A stretch of DNA of 35,952 nt from an uncultured Mycoplasmatota bacterium. GTDB taxonomy: Bacteria; Bacillota_I; Bacilli_A; RF39; UBA660. Below are positions 4,191-32,733 of this stretch, piece by piece. The stretch lies in contig CAMYRF010000002.1 of the NCBI GenBank assembly GCA_947296775.1, forward strand, positions 1-35,952, given 5' to 3'. The translations under genes and the position numbers were made by a program. The notes beneath the pieces are model-generated. The model had not been told where the DNA came from. It saw only the letters and a program-made list of their open reading frames with translations, and searched no databases. Within the stretch, counting starts at the first letter, position 1; each line of letters starts with the position of its first letter.

Positions 4191-4978
4191 AATTTCTTCA
4201 CCCTATACCTAATTTTATATTTTCCGTTTGTCGAAAAACGAATCGTATCACCGTCCTTGATATAGAAATCGCCAAGGTTACTATCCAAAGTGACATTCAT
4301 TAATGCCGAAACTTCATTAATAACAACATCAAGCGCATTAAAATCAATCAACACCTTGGCATTAGCAGTAATTCCTTGATTAATCTCAATCTTCTTATCC
4401 CCGTTTGAAACAGTCAAAGAACCGATGTCAGCACTAGGATTAAAAATAATCGTTTCTGGAGTTTGACCATAATTTATTCCTGCATTTGGAAATTGGAAAC
4501 TATTACCGGTTCCCGAAGCGAGTTGGTCACTACTATAAGCAAACGGGTCACTGCATTCGATTGTTATCGTCCCAACATCGTTTAAAATATCATTTTCCAT
4601 TTTAATTTCAGTCACTGTTCCGGTATAAACAGCTTCTGGATAATCAGCAAAATATAACCGTTGATGTGGTTTCGATAAAATGATATTTAGCTGCTCCATC
4701 TGTCTGTTATATTCAGCGATGGATTCTGTCTTAATCAAAAACTTAACTTCGATAACTCGTCGTTCTAGTTTTGATGATAAATACATATTCCCATCGCCAG
4801 TTAAATCTACATCATTAATTTTCCGGGAAAACGTATGTCGACCACTCACGACTAAAGTGGTATAGCCAGTAATTTCATCATCTAACCAGTGACCACCGTA
4901 ATTAATTGCTTCCACCGGGCGAGTGGGACTATTAATTGATGGATTAATATCCATGTTAGTAAAACCATACATAACCAT
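4187..4978 (-). CDS. Distal tail protein (Dit)
   Basis: A 263-aa ORF lying directly between the tape measure and Tal, with SD ggagg upstream and an ATGA overlap with Tal. Called on position and size. Confidence 0.75.
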   Translation of the reverse strand: MVMYGFTNMDINPSINSPTRPVEAINYGGHWLDDEITGYTTLVVSGRHTFSRKINDVDLTGDGNMYLSSKLERRVIEVKFLIKTESIAEYNRQMEQLNIILSKPHQRLYFADYPEAVYTGTVTEIKMENDILNDVGTITIECSDPFAYSSDQLASGTGNSFQFPNAGINYGQTPETIIFNPSADIGSLTVSNGDKKIEINQGITANAKVLIDFNALDVVINEVSALMNVTLDSNLGDFYIKDGDTIRFSTNGKYKIRYRVKKL

Positions 4979-4984
4979 TACCTC

Positions 4985-7900
4985 CTAAAATCTATACTTA
5001 TTCAATGAAGTTTGCGCACCTTGTTCACGGCTAATATCATCAACAAATGCCCTATACTCTGTTCCGCCCAGTGAAAGGTTAATATAGGCCGGTTGTTGAT
5101 TTATATTAAGTTGGTGGTCGATTGTCCCACCAATGTTATTACTAATATTGCCGTGGCTAAGTACGCCGTTAATTGAACTACTAATATCAACAGATGGCAT
5201 TGCGTGAGCAGCAAGATTATTAGCTGCCTTATCAATCAAATTGGTGTTATCGTTCATACCTTTGGCGAATCCAGCTACAACATAGTACCCAACCTGGTCT
5301 CGCATAACACGGGATGGTGAATGGATTCCTAAAGCAGATTTAGCAGCGTTCATCGCAGAACGAGCCATATTTGCAGCTGCACTAGCAGCAGCGCCAATAG
5401 CCCCACGAATACCATTTACAAATCCCATAACGAAATTGCGACCTGCAGAAACCATTCCGCTTGCTGCTGATCGAACAACATTAACAGCACCATGAATACC
5501 GCTGGAGGTTACAGAACGAGCTGCATTCCATCCAGAACTAAATACAGAACGAACAGTACTCATCATGCTTGATACAACGGATCGAATTCCACTCATACCG
5601 CTTGATACAACTGATTTAATTCCATTCCAAACTGAGGAAGAAATACTCTTAATCCCGTTCCAAGAAGAACTCCACATCGATTTAATTCCACTAAGAATGC
5701 TATTAATTACTGACCTAACTGCATTAAAGATCGTTGTAACTATAGTTTTAATACCGTTCCAAACAGTCGAAACGACACCCTTAATTTCGTTCCAAGCACC
5801 GGACCAGTCTCCTTTGATTGCTGCAGTAACAGCCCGGATAATTCCGGCCACTGCATTAATAGCAGTAGAAACAATTGTTGAGATAACTGTCCATACAGCT
5901 TGGACCACAGTCTTAATCACGTCCCAAGCGGTTGACCAGATAGTTTGAACATTCAGCATGGTTGTTTGGATGATTTGTGAGATAACTTGAATTGCGGTCT
6001 GAACCACAGTCTTAATATTGTCCCAAACTGTTTGAATTACGGTTACTAATGTTTGCCAAATTGCTTGAGCTACTGTGACTATTCCTTGCCATAACTGACT
6101 AAAGAATGGTTGTAATGCCTGCCAAGTGGCCTTAATTGTTTCAATAATCGGTGTAAAGATAGTGACAAGTGTGTTCCAAATACCTTGAGCAACCGTCACA
6201 ATACCCTGCCATAGCGTACTAAAGAATTCACTAAGAGCACTCCATAAGCTCTTAATAGATTCAATAATTGGAGTCATTCCCTGAACAAAGCTATTCCAAA
6301 CACCTTGAGCGGTAGTAACTATTCCTTGCCACAATTGACCGAAGAAATCTTTAATACCATTCCAAATATTCTTCACCGCTTCAACTACGGGAGCAAAGAA
6401 TTGTGCAAATCCATTCCACAATGACTTAGCAGTAGTGACAATATTTTGCCATAACTGACTAAACCAATTAGTCAACCCATTCCACAATCCTTTAATTGTT
6501 TCAACAGGATGTGTTACTGCTTGACCTATTGCATTCCAAACGGTAGAAGCTAGTTGTTTTAAACTAGCCCATGCTTGCTTTAACCAGTTTACAAAGTTAG
6601 ACCATATTTGTTGACCTAATTTTGTTTTAGTAAAGAAGAGAACCAAAGCGGCAACTACAGCGGCTACAACAGCGATAATTGCCGTTAATGCTGCCGCGCT
6701 AATACCGAGAGCCGTAGCAAGAGTAGTAAATGCCGCCCCTACAGCTCCAACGACAGTAGATAGACCTGTAAATATCGCACTAACAACCTTAAAACCCATC
6801 AGAGCAGTTTTAACTATTAGTGATTGAGATTTAAGAGCCTCCAACGCCGAAATTACCTTAGTAATACTTCCGCCAGACTGTCCCAGAACAACTAGCACTC
6901 GGCCAATATTACCAATTGTTCCAATTACCTTACCACCAAGGCTAATCATCTTCCCATAGCCGGAAAGAATACCACCAATAGCAGTTGCAGCAGCACCAAT
7001 TACCGGTGACAAACCAATGAAGCTTCTAATTACTCCTGCTGTACTGCTTTGCGATTTAGTAGCCCAGTCTAAAGTATTTTTAATCATACCAAGATATTGA
7101 TTATTAATCCTTTGAGCAGATTGCATTGAAGTATTGCGAAGTGATTCCCAAGCACCTCCAACTTGTTCTAACGATGCACCAATATTCTTTTGCATTTCTG
7201 AAGCTTGATTTTTCAAATAACTTGTTGCTGCCGCAGTGGAGATTGCTGCTTTGTCTTGTTCGGCAGCGTACGCAGACCAACTATTTTTAGCATCACCAGT
7301 TGTATTAGTTACAGCTTCTAGTAACGGGACGATAGCTTTCATACCTGCTGCACCAAACATGGCTTTCAATGCTGCCGTTTTTTGAGCATCACCCATTCCG
7401 TTAGTTTTATCCGCAATTTCTTGAAGAATTTGTGGAAATGGTTTCATCTTTCCAGAACTATCAACAAAGGAAAGTCCTAACGCATCCATTTGCTTCTTGG
7501 CAATAGAGGAAGGAGCTAACATCTGAGTAATAGCATGGTTAAGATCATCTGAAGCCTGTGCAGCCGAGAAACCACGATTGGTTAATAACCCAATCGCTTC
7601 AGCTGTTGTACCCATATCCATGCCAGCCATCTTAGCAGTCGAACCAATAGTGGCAAGAGCTTGTTGCATATCCTCAATTGACGCATTAGAAGCATTCGCC
7701 GTCTGAACTAAAATAGCTGCAGCTTGTTCTGGTGACTTTAAACTATCACTCCAGATGTTCATTGATTGTTGAACAACTCCAGCGGTAGTTTGCAAGTCTG
7801 AGCCAGCAGCTGTTGAAGCTTCTGCGATTGCTGGAAACTGCTTTTTGATGTCATCAAGCGATGCACCATTTCGCGCCATTTCTAGCATCGCATTGGCTGC

Positions 7901-28785: not shown

Positions 28786-28800
28786 GTTCCAATACGGAAC
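28786..28800. promoter_or_regulatory. Operator-like palindrome GTTCCAATACGGAAC
   Basis: Has the same GTTCC-N5-GGAAC architecture as the site at 29012. It lies between the cro-like stop and the next SD. Confidence 0.5.
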
Positions 28801-28995
28801 TTACGAGGCAAAAAAAATAGTGTCAATATTAAGATCAAATAATTTACTAATAGCAAACATTTCATCTTGAGTAAATTGATTTTTACCATTTTCCTTATCA
28901 CGATAAGCTTTGACACTAATATTTAGATAATCAGCCATTTGTTGTTGAGTCATTCCTTTAACATGTTTTCGTAAATCATATAATCTTGACTGCAT
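28801..28995 (-). CDS. Cro-like XRE-family HTH protein (64 aa)
   Basis: HTH motif MTQQQMADYLNISVKAYRDKENG. The ATG at 28995 follows the SD ggaaaggagag. The track's TTG at 29028 lies inside the operator. Confidence 0.8.
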   Translation of the reverse strand: MQSRLYDLRKHVKGMTQQQMADYLNISVKAYRDKENGKNQFTQDEMFAISKLFDLNIDTIFFAS

Positions 28996-29011
28996 ATTAT
29001 CTCTCCTTTCC

Positions 29012-29026
29012 GTTCCAAATTGGAAC
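29012..29026. promoter_or_regulatory. Operator palindrome GTTCCAAATTGGAAC
   Basis: Perfect 7+1+7 inverted repeat between the -10 of the leftward promoter and the cro-like SD. Confidence 0.65.
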
Positions 29027-29032
29027 AATTAT

Positions 29033-29061
29033 ATATTAAAACCATTCTGGAACAAATGCAA
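29033..29061 (-). promoter_or_regulatory. Early leftward promoter (TTGCAT-17-TAATAT)
   Basis: Read on the minus strand, the -35 is at 29061-29056 and the -10 at 29038-29033. The half-conserved operator GTTCCAGAATGGTTT (29053-29039) fills the spacer. Confidence 0.55.
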
Positions 29062-29088
29062 CTATTTTTTCCGAAAAAGATAAAAAAT

Positions 29089-29118
29089 ATTCCATTTCGG
29101 TAACACAAGTTATATAAT
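29089..29118 (+). promoter_or_regulatory. Candidate repressor-gene promoter (TTCCAT-17-TATAAT) overlapped by a degenerate operator ATTCCATTTCGGTAAC
   Basis: The -10 TATAAT is at 29113-29118. The -35 is weak, which would be expected for an autoregulated maintenance promoter. Confidence 0.4.
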
Positions 29119-29143
29119 TAGTTACATAAGAGAGGTACATAAA

Positions 29144-29785
29144 ATGGAACTAAGTAAATTCATTGGTCAAAAAATCAGAAATTTTCGTGAACAACGTGGC
29201 CTTTCAGTAGAACAACTTGCAGACAAACTTGATACAACAAGAGCAACTGTGACTAGATATGAGTTAGGATCTAGAAAGGCAAATCAAGATGTTTTATTTA
29301 AATTAGCTGAAATTTTTAATGTAAATGTTGATGACTTTTTCCCTACAAGAGAAAAGAAACCTTCTAATATTATTTATCCTAAAGAAGGATTAGAAGTTGT
29401 TTCAATTCCAATCATTGGTGAAATTGCTTGTGGCGATCCGATTACTGCTGAAGAAAATATCGAAGGTTATACTGATGAAATCTTTGAAAAACCAGTTCCT
29501 AGTGGAACACTTTTTGGTCTTCGTTGTAAAGGTGATAGCATGGAGCCTACCATTCCTAATGGCGCATTAGCCATTATTAGAGAGCAACCTGAAGTTGAAG
29601 ATGGTGAGATAGCTGCAGTTCTTGTTGACGATGATAACGAAGCTACTTTAAAACGTATTAAGCATCAAGGTAATTTAGTTATGCTAATGCCAGATAATAA
29701 AAACTATGATCCAATAATTCTTGATGAAGAGCATCCAGGTCGAATTGTTGGTAAATTAGTTAAATATTCAGTGACAATGGAATAA
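29144..29785 (+). CDS. CI/LexA-type repressor: XRE HTH + S24 autopeptidase
   Basis: HTH motif LSVEQLADKLDTTRATVTRYELG. The S24 catalytic motifs are GDSMEP (Ser) and ATLKRI (Lys). Confidence 0.9.
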   Translation: MELSKFIGQKIRNFREQRGLSVEQLADKLDTTRATVTRYELGSRKANQDVLFKLAEIFNVNVDDFFPTREKKPSNIIYPKEGLEVVSIPIIGEIACGDPITAEENIEGYTDEIFEKPVPSGTLFGLRCKGDSMEPTIPNGALAIIREQPEVEDGEIAAVLVDDDNEATLKRIKHQGNLVMLMPDNKNYDPIILDEEHPGRIVGKLVKYSVTME

Positions 29786-29795
29786 GGTGATCCAA

Positions 29796-30674
29796 ATGAG
29801 TAAAAAGAGATGCTTCATATGTAATGATGCCTTAGGAATGTTAAAGGCTTCTTGCATTACCAAAGATGGATATTTAATTTGTGGCAAAGATGCCAACAGA
29901 CTTGATCCCAAACGTCCAGCAAATACTTACCGTGTTCCAATTAAACTTAGCAATTTCATTAGTTCCCATACCGCTAGTGAAATTGAAAGTTTATTAGGGA
30001 TTTCTTCTATCGTACCTTACAAAGAACATCCTGATTTGTATAAGTCAAAGCTATCTAAAGTAACTGAAAAACTTGATTCGATTGCTGATAGCGCTGGTAA
30101 AAAAGCTGATACTTTACAAGCAGCAATTGACGAAATCAACAAAGACGAACAAGAAAAATCGGATGTCATTAAGCAACAGTTAAAGGATGCCAATGTAGAA
30201 AATCTATTTGGTACTAAAAAGGAAATTAAAGCTTTACCAGACATAATAGATATTGATGGTGGAGAAAAAATACTTTATGCAGCTAATGCTTTTATTGAAA
30301 CTCATTCTATCCTTGCAGTATGTACCAATAAGCGTGTAATTTTTCTTGATCACGGTCTAATTTATGGCAGTAAATCAACCGATATTCCCCTTGATATGAT
30401 TAATGGTGTTTCATATTCTAACGGGTTAATGTTAGGATCCATTTCAGTAACTAACGGGGCTATTACAACTCAAATAGAAAACATGCAACCCTACCCTGCT
30501 AAAAAAATGGCCGAGATTATTAAACAGGCAGCTGCAGACTTTAAGCAGACATCAGTACAATCCAATTCTAGTAATGACCTTTCGCAATTAAGAGAATTAA
30601 AGCAACTACTTGATGATGGAGTTATTACTGAAGAAGAATTTACCGCTAAAAAGAAACAAATTTTGGAAATATAA
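29796..30674 (+). CDS. Lysogeny-module cargo protein: N-terminal Cys4 zinc-ribbon-like motif, coiled coil, bacterial PH-like domain, C-terminal SHOCT
   Basis: The ATG lies 4 nt after the SD aaggtgat and 11 nt after the repressor stop. Recognised segments are CFICNDALGMLKASCITKDGYLICG, EKILYAANAF...NKRVIFLDHG...INGVSYSNG and LRELKQLLDDGVITEEEFTAKKKQIL. Confidence 0.65.
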   Translation: MSKKRCFICNDALGMLKASCITKDGYLICGKDANRLDPKRPANTYRVPIKLSNFISSHTASEIESLLGISSIVPYKEHPDLYKSKLSKVTEKLDSIADSAGKKADTLQAAIDEINKDEQEKSDVIKQQLKDANVENLFGTKKEIKALPDIIDIDGGEKILYAANAFIETHSILAVCTNKRVIFLDHGLIYGSKSTDIPLDMINGVSYSNGLMLGSISVTNGAITTQIENMQPYPAKKMAEIIKQAAADFKQTSVQSNSSNDLSQLRELKQLLDDGVITEEEFTAKKKQILEI

Positions 30675-30685
30675 GGAGTTAAAGA

Positions 30686-31120
30686 ATGAAGAAACTTTTA
30701 AAAACACTTTTTCTTATCTTAGGAACTGTAATGATTTCAATAACACTCCTTATAGGTAATATTCATAGCAGTTCAACTAGCTATCCAAATATAACAACTA
30801 AATTTAACGTTGATAAAATGTCTAGTTATAACGAAGATGATTTATTTGCTAGTGTAACTTTAAAAAAGTTCTATGTTATTGGGGTAACAACTGACAATGT
30901 TAATCAATATCGCTTAGTGCTGACACCCAAGCCAAATAGTAATCAATACTTTTACATGACAACCAGTAAACATAAAAAGATTAGTGTAGGTCAGAAAATT
31001 ACGGTAAAAGGGCAACTCAATGGTCGATTAACTATTCCTGATGACAAATATAATAGACACCTTCAGTCTAATGTATTAAATAAGAATGCAACTATGGTCC
31101 TTGTCAAATCTTATAAATAA
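30686..31120 (+). CDS. Lysogeny-module cargo protein: N-terminal membrane anchor + extracytoplasmic OB-like domain; superinfection-exclusion candidate
   Basis: The ATG lies 7 nt after the SD ggag and 11 nt after the upstream stop. The TM helix is LFLILGTVMISITLLIG, with no lipobox Cys. VGQKITVKGQLNGR is reminiscent of tRNA_anti-like OB proteins. Confidence 0.6.
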   Translation: MKKLLKTLFLILGTVMISITLLIGNIHSSSTSYPNITTKFNVDKMSSYNEDDLFASVTLKKFYVIGVTTDNVNQYRLVLTPKPNSNQYFYMTTSKHKKISVGQKITVKGQLNGRLTIPDDKYNRHLQSNVLNKNATMVLVKSYK

Positions 31121-31160
31121 TCTTTTGTCCAACTACTTGATGACGTAAAAAGCTAGTAAA

Positions 31161-31239
31161 TAAAAAAGCCCACCGACAGCTGCAACTGTCAGTGGACCAA
31201 GGGTTGATATTAATTGCGTCCAAACAAATTTTATCAACC
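31161..31239 (-). ncRNA. Predicted ~78-nt two-hairpin RNA antisense to the region just upstream of int
   Basis: The minus-strand promoter TTGTCC-18-TATAAT has its -10 at 31250-31245. Stem-loop 1 is GGGTTGATA/TATCAACCC (31240-31232 / 31209-31201, perfect 9 bp). The terminator stem pairs 31195-31186 with 31179-31170 (10 bp, one G-U pair) and is followed by UUUUUUAUUU. Confidence 0.5.
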
Positions 31240-31244
31240 CTTTC

Positions 31245-31274
31245 ATTATACACAATTTAATAATGGAGGGACAA
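31245..31274 (-). promoter_or_regulatory. Minus-strand promoter overlapping the int SD region
   Basis: The -35 TTGTCC is the reverse complement of 31269-31274. The spacer is 18 nt and the -10 is a perfect TATAAT. Confidence 0.45.
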
Positions 31275-31276
31275 GT

Positions 31277-32401
31277 ATGCCAATAAGTATTAAAAAAGTT
31301 TACGGTAGTTGGCAAGCAAGAGTTCGCTGGACTGACACTAATGGCAAAAGACACTCGAAGTCAAAAAATGGTTTCAAGACCAAGGCTCTCGCTCGTCAGT
31401 GGGGTAATGACCTTGAAACTAAAGTCAATCAAGGTATTGATATAAAAAAAGAGATTAGCTTCTTAAATTATTACAATCAATGGGTGATAACATATAAAGA
31501 GCCAAAGTTAAGTTCAAAAACTCTTAATCGATATACCGTTGTTGGTAATATATTGCAAAAACACTTTAAGCAAACAAACATCAAAAATATTACCAGAACT
31601 ATGTACCAAGAATTTATTAATAGTTATGGTAGTAATCATGCGATTTCAAGTGTAAAAAAATTAAATTCTATCATTAGAAGCTGTGTTAAATCTGCAATTT
31701 TGGACGATTACCTAACTAAGGACTTTACTCAAAGAGTGACATTAACTGCCGATAAGTCTAAAACTTTAGAAGTGCAATATCCAAATGTCAATGAAATAAA
31801 GAAGATACTTAATCAAACTATTAATGGAATGACTGACAGAAGGTACACCAGTCGATACATGATCATTACTGCTATTTATACTGGTATGCGTAAGGAGGAA
31901 ATTCAAGCATTGACCTGGAATGATATCGATTTCTTGCACGATACCATCAAAATAGATAAAGCATGGCGAGAAACCAAAGACAAAGGTGAAAGCAACAGTC
32001 ACTTTATAACTCACCGTTTTAAACCAACCAAAAATAAAGCCTCAATTCGGCAGATTAAGGTTAATCATAAGTTGATCAGAATATTAAGCAGATTAAAGAT
32101 CAATGCAACAAGTAATCTAGTATTTATGGACCAGTTTGGAACTATTCCTACAAGTGGTCCACTAAATGACAAACTGCGCGAAATAATGGCAGAGCTTAAC
32201 ATAAAAAAAGAAAATTTTCATTTTCACAGCTTACGACATAGTCACGTTGCACTTTTGCTTGCAAATGGTATTGACACTTATGCAATTAGTCGAAGATTAG
32301 GACATAATGACATCACAACAACGATTAATACTTATGCTTACCTTATTGATGAATATAAAAATAAGTCAGATAAAGATATCCTCAAAGCACTAGATTTTTA
32401 A
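31277..32401 (+). CDS. int: Tyrosine integrase
   Basis: The ATG follows the SD ggaggg. The C-terminal catalytic pattern is HSLRHSHVALLL...LGHNDITTTINTYAYL. The track start at 31214 has no SD. Confidence 0.9.
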   Translation: MPISIKKVYGSWQARVRWTDTNGKRHSKSKNGFKTKALARQWGNDLETKVNQGIDIKKEISFLNYYNQWVITYKEPKLSSKTLNRYTVVGNILQKHFKQTNIKNITRTMYQEFINSYGSNHAISSVKKLNSIIRSCVKSAILDDYLTKDFTQRVTLTADKSKTLEVQYPNVNEIKKILNQTINGMTDRRYTSRYMIITAIYTGMRKEEIQALTWNDIDFLHDTIKIDKAWRETKDKGESNSHFITHRFKPTKNKASIRQIKVNHKLIRILSRLKINATSNLVFMDQFGTIPTSGPLNDKLREIMAELNIKKENFHFHSLRHSHVALLLANGIDTYAISRRLGHNDITTTINTYAYLIDEYKNKSDKDILKALDF

Positions 32402-32409
32402 CTAAAGCC

Positions 32410-32429
32410 CGTGACCAATTCGTGACCAA
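32410..32429 (+). repeat. Two tandem CGTGACCAA repeats (candidate Int arm-type sites, P arm)
   Basis: CGTGACCAA occurs at 32410-32418 and 32421-32429. Confidence 0.5.
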
Positions 32430-32490
32430 AGTTCACAAATTTGCACCATTTTATACCATTTCTTCAAAAGCAAAATTTAAACTAAAAAAT

Positions 32491-32522
32491 AGGAGAAAGC
32501 CTGCAATAACAATCTTTCTCCT
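32491..32522. terminator. Bidirectional intrinsic terminator after int
   Basis: AGGAGAAAG/CTTTCTCCT is a 9-bp stem with a 14-nt loop. An A-run lies upstream and a T-rich tract downstream. Confidence 0.7.
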
Positions 32523-32626
32523 ATTTCATTAACTTAGCTGACAATTTTGTACCAAAGTACTAATATGCCTCCGGTGAGTATTTCTTACCCTCTTATATCA
32601 ACGATTACAAGGAAACCGTGACCAAT

Positions 32627-32644
32627 CCATGACCTTTTTCTACT
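32627..32644 (+). repeat. CGTGACCAA plus a degenerate CATGACC copy (candidate arm-type sites, P' arm)
   Basis: A perfect 9-mer lies at 32627-32635 and CATGACC at 32638-32644. Confidence 0.45.
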
Positions 32645-32652
32645 ATTATATA

Positions 32653-32695
32653 TAAACAAAAAAGATGACCATTACATTCAATGCAACAGTCATCT
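32653..32695 (-). terminator. Intrinsic terminator after the lysis cassette
   Basis: AGATGAC/GTCATCT stem (32663-32669 / 32689-32695), followed on the minus strand by UUUUUUGUUU. Confidence 0.6.
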
Positions 32696-32733
32696 ATATG
32701 TTAATTACAAGAGAATTTTACCTCTTTTTTTAT

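Follow-up and report, generated by a model that had tools for sequence, protein, structure and literature searches.

The subject of this report is a cargo locus in the lysogeny module of a temperate phage. The window, by which we mean the whole analysed stretch of 35,952 nucleotides (contig CAMYRF010000002.1), represents the genome of a temperate siphophage of Limosilactobacillus reuteri, in which two plus-strand genes, ORF2 (29796..30674) and ORF3 (30686..31120), lie between the repressor gene and the integrase gene (int). The comparative data show that ORF2 and ORF3 are modular, independently exchangeable cassettes with separate histories, and not an obligate two-gene system. From the analysis as a whole we regard the locus as a plausible phage-exclusion locus, with exclusion or defence as the most plausible role of its products. 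We lean, if only somewhat, towards an explanation in which the repressor operon of a temperate phage carries two separate exchangeable cargo cassettes, ORF3 acting as a surface blocker in the manner of superinfection exclusion (Sie) proteins and ORF2 contributing separately. Among temperate phages of lactic acid bacteria a locus of this type is nothing unusual, and ORF3 represents a new family in a slot of known function. Our results extend a known pattern and leave current concepts unchanged.

With a conserved element upstream of int as the handle, the survey of this slot yielded 24 IMG/VR contigs (L058-L081). Slots that hold an ORF2 homologue continue with ORF3, with a DUF5067 protein carrying a transmembrane (TM) segment (TM-DUF5067), with a gene for an 89-amino-acid (aa) protein plus Abi_2, with a four-TM protein or with a lipoprotein. 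Apart from ORF3, at least five different neighbours are found behind ORF2 homologues (among them the four-TM protein, the lipoprotein, DUF5067 and the 89-aa gene with Abi_2), or int follows directly. Slots without ORF2 contain a TM-anchored Ltp-type protein (PF07553, 7e-51), DUF5067 lipoproteins, Abi_2 or a DUF4428-only zinc-ribbon protein. The initial annotation had recognized the position as one in which Sie and abortive infection (Abi) functions reside, and this is borne out by the Ltp-type, DUF5067 and Abi_2 genes of sibling phages and by Sie2009 in phage Tuc2009. The hot spot, which extends from the immunity genes to the conserved antisense RNA element, could be mined for more exclusion or defence genes.

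Further contents of the slot were noted in passing. They include an ATPase-like gene (603 aa) with a methylase-like gene (310 aa) behind it (Pfam was run on neither), DUF4352 surface proteins, and a number of unannotated lipoproteins whose linkers are long and rich in Ser and Gln. After the ORF2 homologue of L013 comes a 119-aa four-TM protein of PHROG 9418 (4936-5295, plus strand); after that of L015 comes a 114-aa lipoprotein of PHROG 9078 (4888-5232, plus strand), with weak matches to beta barrels of the TRAM/S1 type.

The boundaries of the exchanges coincide with those of the genes. L072 matches the window at 95% identity as far as position 30674, where ORF2 stops, and at 98% identity again from 31116 on; the stretch between, window positions 30675-31115 with ORF3, is swapped exactly for a TM-DUF5067 gene. 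In L081 and L050, homology to the window breaks at 29788, which is the ribosome-binding site (RBS) of ORF2. Synonymous divergence between the window and L056 amounts to 0.02 in the repressor gene, 0.11 in ORF2 and 0.43 in ORF3. Adjacency of ORF2 and ORF3 is found in four diverged lineages, namely the window with L056, L050-55, L057 and L010-12. In L050-55 the immunity module has been swapped to an HTH plus ImmA-like gene and ORF2-ORF3 has been retained; in L057 the two genes are 60% (ORF2) and 72% (ORF3) identical to those of the window and 2 nt apart, and in L010-12 the corresponding values are 45% and 64%. All examined members of the close ORF3 clade have an ORF2 homologue upstream. The two genes had been proposed initially as a candidate pair, with a survey of their co-occurrence in other prophages as a check. 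The comparative data instead describe two exchangeable cassettes, though the close ORF3 clade always sits behind an ORF2 homologue; co-occurrence as such is seen in the four lineages with adjacency, and a fixed pair is contradicted by the replacement of ORF3 in L072 and by remote ORF3 relatives that have no PH gene.

The first gene of the operon encodes a repressor of the LexA/CI type (29144..29785, plus strand; 213 aa) with an HTH_3 domain (Pfam, 7e-16) and a Peptidase_S24 autocleavage domain (2e-27), and it matches PHROG 4 (transcriptional repressor) at 1e-44. The coordinates first given for the operon were right: all three genes are on the plus strand, the gaps are 10 nt (repressor to ORF2) and 11 nt (ORF2 to ORF3), and each gene has a Shine-Dalgarno sequence, AAGGTGA preceding ORF2 and AAGGAG preceding ORF3. 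From the repressor start to the ORF3 stop no plus-strand terminator-like site was found except a weak 5-bp stem within the repressor gene. The GC content of positions 30721-30780, counted earlier by hand as 32%, is 31.7% when computed, compared with 29.4% for ORF3, 34.0% for ORF2 and 37.2% for the whole window. Purifying selection acts on both cargo genes (dN/dS 0.10-0.25; 0.17-0.25 for ORF2). Transcription of ORF2 and ORF3 together with the repressor in the lysogen is plausible from this gene layout, and a precedent exists in lysogens of the Staphylococcus aureus phage 80alpha, in which the cargo of the cI operon is transcribed and a cI-tha-1 transcript is formed (PMC11087260).

ORF3 encodes a predicted exported OB-fold protein of 144 aa (AlphaFold2 (AF2) model, pLDDT 87). 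Residues 3-25 (30692..30760, plus strand) form a helix in the model, with a KD19 value of 2.31 and a K-rich N-region, and would constitute a signal peptide or an N-terminal membrane anchor. Residues 31-144 (30776..31117, plus strand) are modelled with a pLDDT above 94 as an OB-like beta barrel of five strands, predicted to be extracytoplasmic. The hydrophobic N-terminal segment and OB-like fold that had been read from the letters are thereby confirmed, and so is the lack of a lipobox, since ORF3 contains no Cys. Sites of the AXA type (IQA before S, ASA before K, AFA before Q) lie just N-terminal of the domain in close as well as remote homologues, and the N-terminus of ORF3 may be either an uncleaved anchor or a cleaved signal peptide. 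Foldseek matches of the barrel in the PDB are OB folds only. Its structural neighbours in BFVD comprise phage lipoproteins, tRNA_anti-like proteins, CcmE and CcmE-like proteins and a host cell surface-exposed lipoprotein, the top match having an E-value of 1.9e-4 and a query-normalised TM-score of 0.56. ORF3 has no Pfam match above cut-off, no PHROG match and no tblastn match in phage records, and the exact ORF3 sequence alone is present on 335 contigs.

Judged from its sequence relatives, ORF3 founds an unannotated family of predicted exported OB-fold proteins, which many prophages of Lactobacillaceae carry immediately behind the repressor or ImmA gene. A word-indexed search returned 8 close relatives only, and an exhaustive phmmer search of 1.8 billion representatives returned 43 relatives, 16 of them at E up to 1e-10. 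The family motif is YPDIxxKFD...MSxYS..DLF...QYHLLLTP..NSDQYF...LNG. The domain is always preceded by a signal peptide with an AXA site, by a lipobox, or by one or two TM helices and a Ser-rich linker, and in some larger relatives it stands behind Big_6 or CarboxypepD_reg modules. None of the sequence families of Pfam, PHROG, PADLOC and the PDB covers it; searches of PDB sequences with the family profiles of both ORF2 and ORF3 gave nothing meaningful.

Five remote relatives (P0130, P0134, P0126, L041 and L030) lie right after a repressor or ImmA gene and before int, the first three with Abi_2, HipA-like or DUF5067 genes nearby and without a PH gene. A scan of 185,579 genomes with a degenerate DNA pattern produced 23 stretches, six of which are true members of the family, and added two lysogeny modules in Companilactobacillus and one gene beside a broken int in Bombilactobacillus. 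The ORF3-family gene of L043 adjoins a broken int. Standalone family genes also occupy a syntenic chromosomal locus in Companilactobacillus huachuanensis, Companilactobacillus sp. HBUAS59544 and Companilactobacillus formosensis (L047, L048 and L049).

Sie proteins of Gram-positive phages are typically anchored via an N-terminal helix or a lipid. Sie2009 of the Lactococcus phage Tuc2009 (PHROG 8545) is encoded in the same slot between repressor and int as ORF3, and the two share an N-terminal hydrophobic segment followed by a small extracytoplasmic OB-type beta domain, which in ORF3 is predicted. By Pfam, Sie2009 (173 aa versus 144 aa in ORF3) consists of a TM segment, a linker and a tRNA_anti-like OB domain (PF12869, 3.5e-11, 43.3 bits). 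Its linker is rich in Ser and Thr, whereas ORF3 has no such linker and may be set free by cleavage. Sie2009 has been demonstrated to block DNA injection, an activity that can be proposed for ORF3 by analogy only.

A second point of comparison is Ltp of the Streptococcus thermophilus phage TP-J34, which is encoded by a lysogeny-module gene transcribed in the prophage state, is exposed on the outside of the membrane and prevents the injection of phage DNA (PMC3952083). In the sibling phage L058 a TM-anchored protein with the Ltp domain occupies the cargo slot between the ImmA gene and int. However, Ltp (Lipoprotein_Ltp, PF07553) has a lipobox and a helical repeat domain, both of which are missing from ORF3, a protein with a beta-barrel fold and no match to PF07553.

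ORF2 encodes a predicted cytoplasmic protein of 292 aa, a long-form PH-SHOCT protein of PHROG 2700 as judged by Pfam, PHROG, AF2 and Foldseek. The mechanical open reading frame starts at GTG 29787; we place the start at ATG 29796 because the database proteins that are 100% identical are 292 aa long and begin with MSKKRCF. The AF2 model (pLDDT 79.8) consists of an N-terminal hairpin, a helix at residues 86-131, a PH sandwich at residues 159-230, a long C-terminal helix and the SHOCT helix. The bacterial PH domain (bPH_3, PF14470) covers residues 156-243 (30261..30524, plus strand; Pfam 3.3e-18, above cut-off), and the bacterial PH domains 3dcx and 3hsa are the top Foldseek matches in the PDB (E about 5e-4). 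A SHOCT motif (PF09851) covers residues 264-290 (30585..30665, plus strand; 3e-11, above cut-off), in which K269, L271, G275, K285 and K286 are invariant in 31 homologues. The PH-like and SHOCT elements named in the initial annotation are thus secure, and the coiled coil that it proposed appears as a single long helix, that of residues 86-131, with modest pLDDT.

Its Cys4 zinc ribbon is a more divided case. The candidate DUF4428-like ribbon spans residues 5-31 (29808..29888, plus strand; Cys 6, 9, 20 and 29) and is modelled as a small beta hairpin with a pLDDT of 81-89. Several homologues carry DUF4428 with significant matches, and conservation among the homologues reaches at least 90% at C6 and C29, with a fourth Cys that varies in position; these results favor the claim. 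In ORF2 itself the DUF4428 match (PF14471) is weak, with an E-value of 0.18 and 12.1 bits against a cut-off of 27.8. No TM segment was found in ORF2 (maximum KD19 1.27).

On the strength of homology ORF2 appears as a new long-form member of a known and partly characterised family. Its PH-SHOCT part was matched by tblastn in 45-51 phage records, with Staphylococcus, Lactococcus, Streptococcus, Lactobacillus and similar hosts; all or nearly all of these phages are temperate. The initial annotation had traced the PH-like fold to YokE of the SPbeta prophage; none of the tblastn matches was to a Bacillus phage. BLASTP aligns ORF2 with ORF2 of the lactococcal phage TP901-1 at 33.9% identity over 183 aa (E 1.3e-33), both proteins match PHROG 2700 (3e-46 and 2e-60, respectively), and orf2 of phage bIL285 ("sie285") is matched by tblastn as well. 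A PH-SHOCT gene follows the repressor or ImmA gene and precedes int, all in one orientation, in TP901-1, Lactobacillus gasseri JNU_P11, Streptococcus pyogenes Javan526, S. aureus 321c and metagenomic relatives; ORF2 of TP901-1 and orf2 of bIL285 thus share the slot and strand of ORF2, between the immunity genes and int. The homology extends over the C-terminal 180 residues of ORF2 (PH plus SHOCT). At 181 aa the lactococcal proteins are short forms that lack the DUF4428 zinc ribbon and the long helix, in contrast to the long form of ORF2, whose N-terminal extension (zinc ribbon plus helix) is common to JNU_P11 and many relatives in the Lactobacillaceae.

Experimental data exist for two of these relatives. 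ORF2/3 of TP901-1 is stated to be 100% identical to SieF7/2AB of Lactococcus lactis F7/2, as reported by Ruiz-Cruz et al. (PMC7693887). A pNZ44 clone of TP901-1 orf2/3 reduced the efficiency of plaquing and the plaque size of the skunaviruses 62601 and 66901, and gave complete resistance to P087 and WRP3 (PMC7693887). The lactococcal members of the family are produced in lysogens: the bIL285 homologue, listed as sie285, contains a bacterial PH domain and was detected in the lysogen proteome, as noted by Aucouturier et al.; injection blocking was reported for sie309 and sie312 only, and not for sie285 (PMC6127208). The homology to TP901-1 ORF2, one component of SieF7/2AB, and to sie285 means that the earlier statement of an uncharacterised domain combination is wrong for the PH-SHOCT core. 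Moreover, a ubiquitous "PH domain-containing protein" of Firmicutes prophages is now tied to the little-cited lactococcal data on SieF7/2 and sie285. The partner genes differ. In SieF7/2AB the partner is an upstream ImmA-like Zn-metalloprotease, whereas the neighbour of ORF2 is the downstream gene for the predicted exported OB-fold protein ORF3. The window contains no M78 gene between repressor and int, although the relatives L013, L015 and L050 do carry one; in this phage the metalloprotease partner is absent because the repressor is of the S24 type.

According to the explanation that we favor, ORF2 and ORF3 would be cargo expressed in the lysogen from a position between the immunity genes and int. 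ORF3 would be exported and would most likely remain on, or close to, the outer surface of the membrane. There it would, like Sie2009 and Ltp, hinder DNA entry of superinfecting phages after adsorption, and its target may be the tape-measure or tail-tip proteins of the incoming phage or a host entry component. ORF2 would probably act separately from the cytoplasmic side, possibly as a membrane-proximal oligomer or sensor. A testable Sie-like role is hereby proposed for a "hypothetical protein". L. reuteri is a widely used probiotic and gut-model species whose prophages affect fitness and in which phage resistance sets strain stability.

This explanation should be interpreted with some caution, since several results weigh against it. 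The match of ORF3 to PF12869 reaches 16.4 bits and stays below the 23.5-bit cut-off, comparison of the ORF3 family with Sie2009 by hhalign gives a probability of 0.3 and no relationship, and ORF3 matches none of the PHROG Sie families including PHROG 8545. Consequently, ORF3 resembles Sie2009 in architecture and position and cannot be filed as a member of its family. Neither ORF2 nor ORF3 matches any defence family of PADLOC-DB 2.0 at E up to 1 (0 families each). Resistance conferred by the ORF2 family is known only jointly with the metalloprotease gene that this phage lacks, and sie285 alone has no reported phenotype. Finally, the chromosomal locus of the ORF3 family in three Companilactobacillus species has TetR-family and GNAT acetyltransferase genes as neighbours and is devoid of prophage genes, from which it follows that the ORF3 domain is not phage-specific and has host-encoded members.

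A more far-reaching possibility, which we consider doubtful, is that ORF3 represents a new surface-exposed OB-fold exclusion family, widespread in lysogeny modules of Lactobacillaceae and analogous or very remotely related to Sie2009, which in the L. reuteri lineage would form a membrane-spanning device with the PH-SHOCT protein.

Alternatively, ORF3 could be a lysogenic-conversion factor that serves the host at its surface, by binding cell-wall or mucosal ligands or by changing the envelope, and has no anti-phage role. The chromosomal, non-prophage members in Companilactobacillus and the larger relatives in which the domain is joined to Big_6 or CarboxypepD_reg surface-protein modules are consistent with such a function, as are the altered lysozyme and nisin sensitivities of lactococcal lysogens with PH-gene prophages, which indicate that lysogeny-module cargo can change the envelope (PMC6127208). 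However, 10 of the 11 contexts inspected place the ORF3 domain within a lysogeny module or the remnant of a prophage, and the slot in sibling phages holds Ltp-type, Abi_2 and other defence-like genes. We judge this alternative unlikely.

The position of ORF2 invites another reading, in which it belongs to the lysis-lysogeny switch as an auxiliary factor, for example one that works with the repressor or ImmA as a modulator or signal sensor, and is no defence gene at all. The ORF2 family always follows immediately after the repressor or ImmA gene, with start/stop overlap with the ImmA gene in L013 and L015, and this position is conserved across phages of Lactococcus, Streptococcus, Staphylococcus and Lactobacillaceae. 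The lack of a PADLOC match for ORF2 also fits, as does the dependence of the reported resistance on an accompanying ImmA-like metalloprotease gene. On the other hand, the family accompanies immunity modules of both the S24 type and the HTH plus ImmA type. It is absent from most sibling phages that share the int module, several of them with homologous immunity genes, and ORF2 would therefore be dispensable for the switch. The TP901-1 orf2/3 clone, moreover, confers resistance outside the prophage (PMC7693887). Taken together, these observations make a switch accessory improbable.

Equally improbable is an obligate two-component exclusion or defence system of a cytoplasmic PH-SHOCT partner and a surface OB-fold partner: the adjacency kept in four diverged lineages, the ORF2 homologue in front of each close-clade ORF3 examined and the membrane or surface protein gene that usually lies downstream of ORF2 homologues are in its favor, but they stand against the exact replacement of ORF3 in L072 between flanks of 95-98% identity, the five or more alternative downstream neighbours of ORF2 homologues or their absence, the remote ORF3-domain proteins in lysogeny modules without a PH gene, the unequal synonymous divergence of ORF2 and ORF3 within one phage pair, and the predicted location of the products on opposite sides of the membrane, with only about six cytoplasmic ORF3 residues available for contact.

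At its 3' border, just upstream of int, the cargo slot ends in a conserved two-hairpin antisense element on the minus strand (31157..31238), the one that served as the handle for the 24 IMG/VR contigs. It is a candidate small RNA (sRNA), some 80 nt long and equipped with an intrinsic terminator. The minus-strand terminator at 31198..31167 is followed by a T-tail, and a promoter-like site at 31274..31245 (minus strand) overlaps the int RBS. The element has a minimum free energy of -38 kcal/mol (z -6.65), and 11 of its 22 pairs show compensatory changes among 18 distinct copies. Its G-U pairs occur on the minus strand only and would be C-A mismatches on the plus strand. No match was found in Rfam. 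The candidate sRNA may be directed against read-through from the repressor operon into int. A hydrophobic minus-strand open reading frame of 37 codons (31246..31133; L007 7338-7451, minus strand), which carries a gene call in one metagenome contig, was discarded as probably no gene, since the terminator lies inside the frame and a stop follows after 5 codons in L058.

The arrangement recalls the cI operon of 80alpha (tha-1 and the antisense ith-1), described as a "noncontiguous operon", in which defence cargo is expressed from the repressor promoter in lysogens (PMC11087260). A small convergent antisense unit also lies between cargo and int in 80alpha, and its counterpart in the window would be the element at 31157-31238 on the minus strand. 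Unlike that of 80alpha, the candidate antisense unit of the window is non-coding (the 37-codon frame is not conserved), and the HEPN effector is absent.

Upstream of the operon, a cro-like gene (28801-29028, minus strand) is divergent from the repressor gene. The regulatory region between them (29029..29143) contains a perfect TATAAT at 29113-29118 on the plus strand with a weak -35 sequence; a consensus promoter scan, at its threshold, listed no plus-strand promoter in this region. At its edge lies the palindrome GTTCCAAATTGGAAC (29012-29026), one of three GTTCC-N4-5-GGAAC sites in the window, where 0.05 would be expected by chance. The sites are located just 3' of the cro-like gene (28786-28800), at the 5' end of that gene (29012-29026) and inside the repressor gene (29495-29508). 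They are likely to be operators in a three-site arrangement, which we take to be like OR/OL/OD of TP901-1.

As for the phage itself, the minus strand of the window carries the structural, holin and lysin genes, and the plus strand carries the lysogeny module. The L. reuteri phages LR1 and LR2 are 96% identical to its tail-fibre segment, and proteins identical to ORF2 and ORF3 have been deposited under L. reuteri and Limosilactobacillus agrestis as "PH domain-containing protein" and "hypothetical protein", respectively. The locus had no megablast match in 50,697 phage records. The lysogeny module ends with a tyrosine integrase gene (31277..32401, plus strand; Pfam Phage_integrase 3e-23, Arm-DNA-bind_4 1e-7). 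In the window the lysin gene comes after int; this neighbourhood (32402-32733) is the circular or excised junction, with attP between the two genes. Elsewhere, in the loci L005, L006 and L007, the lysogeny-module genes of the window are integrated beside chromosomal genes. The same module has two chromosomal neighbourhoods, a dNK/permease side in L006 and a TIM/PsiE side in L007, an indication that the integration context or the gene order of the host is not always the same.

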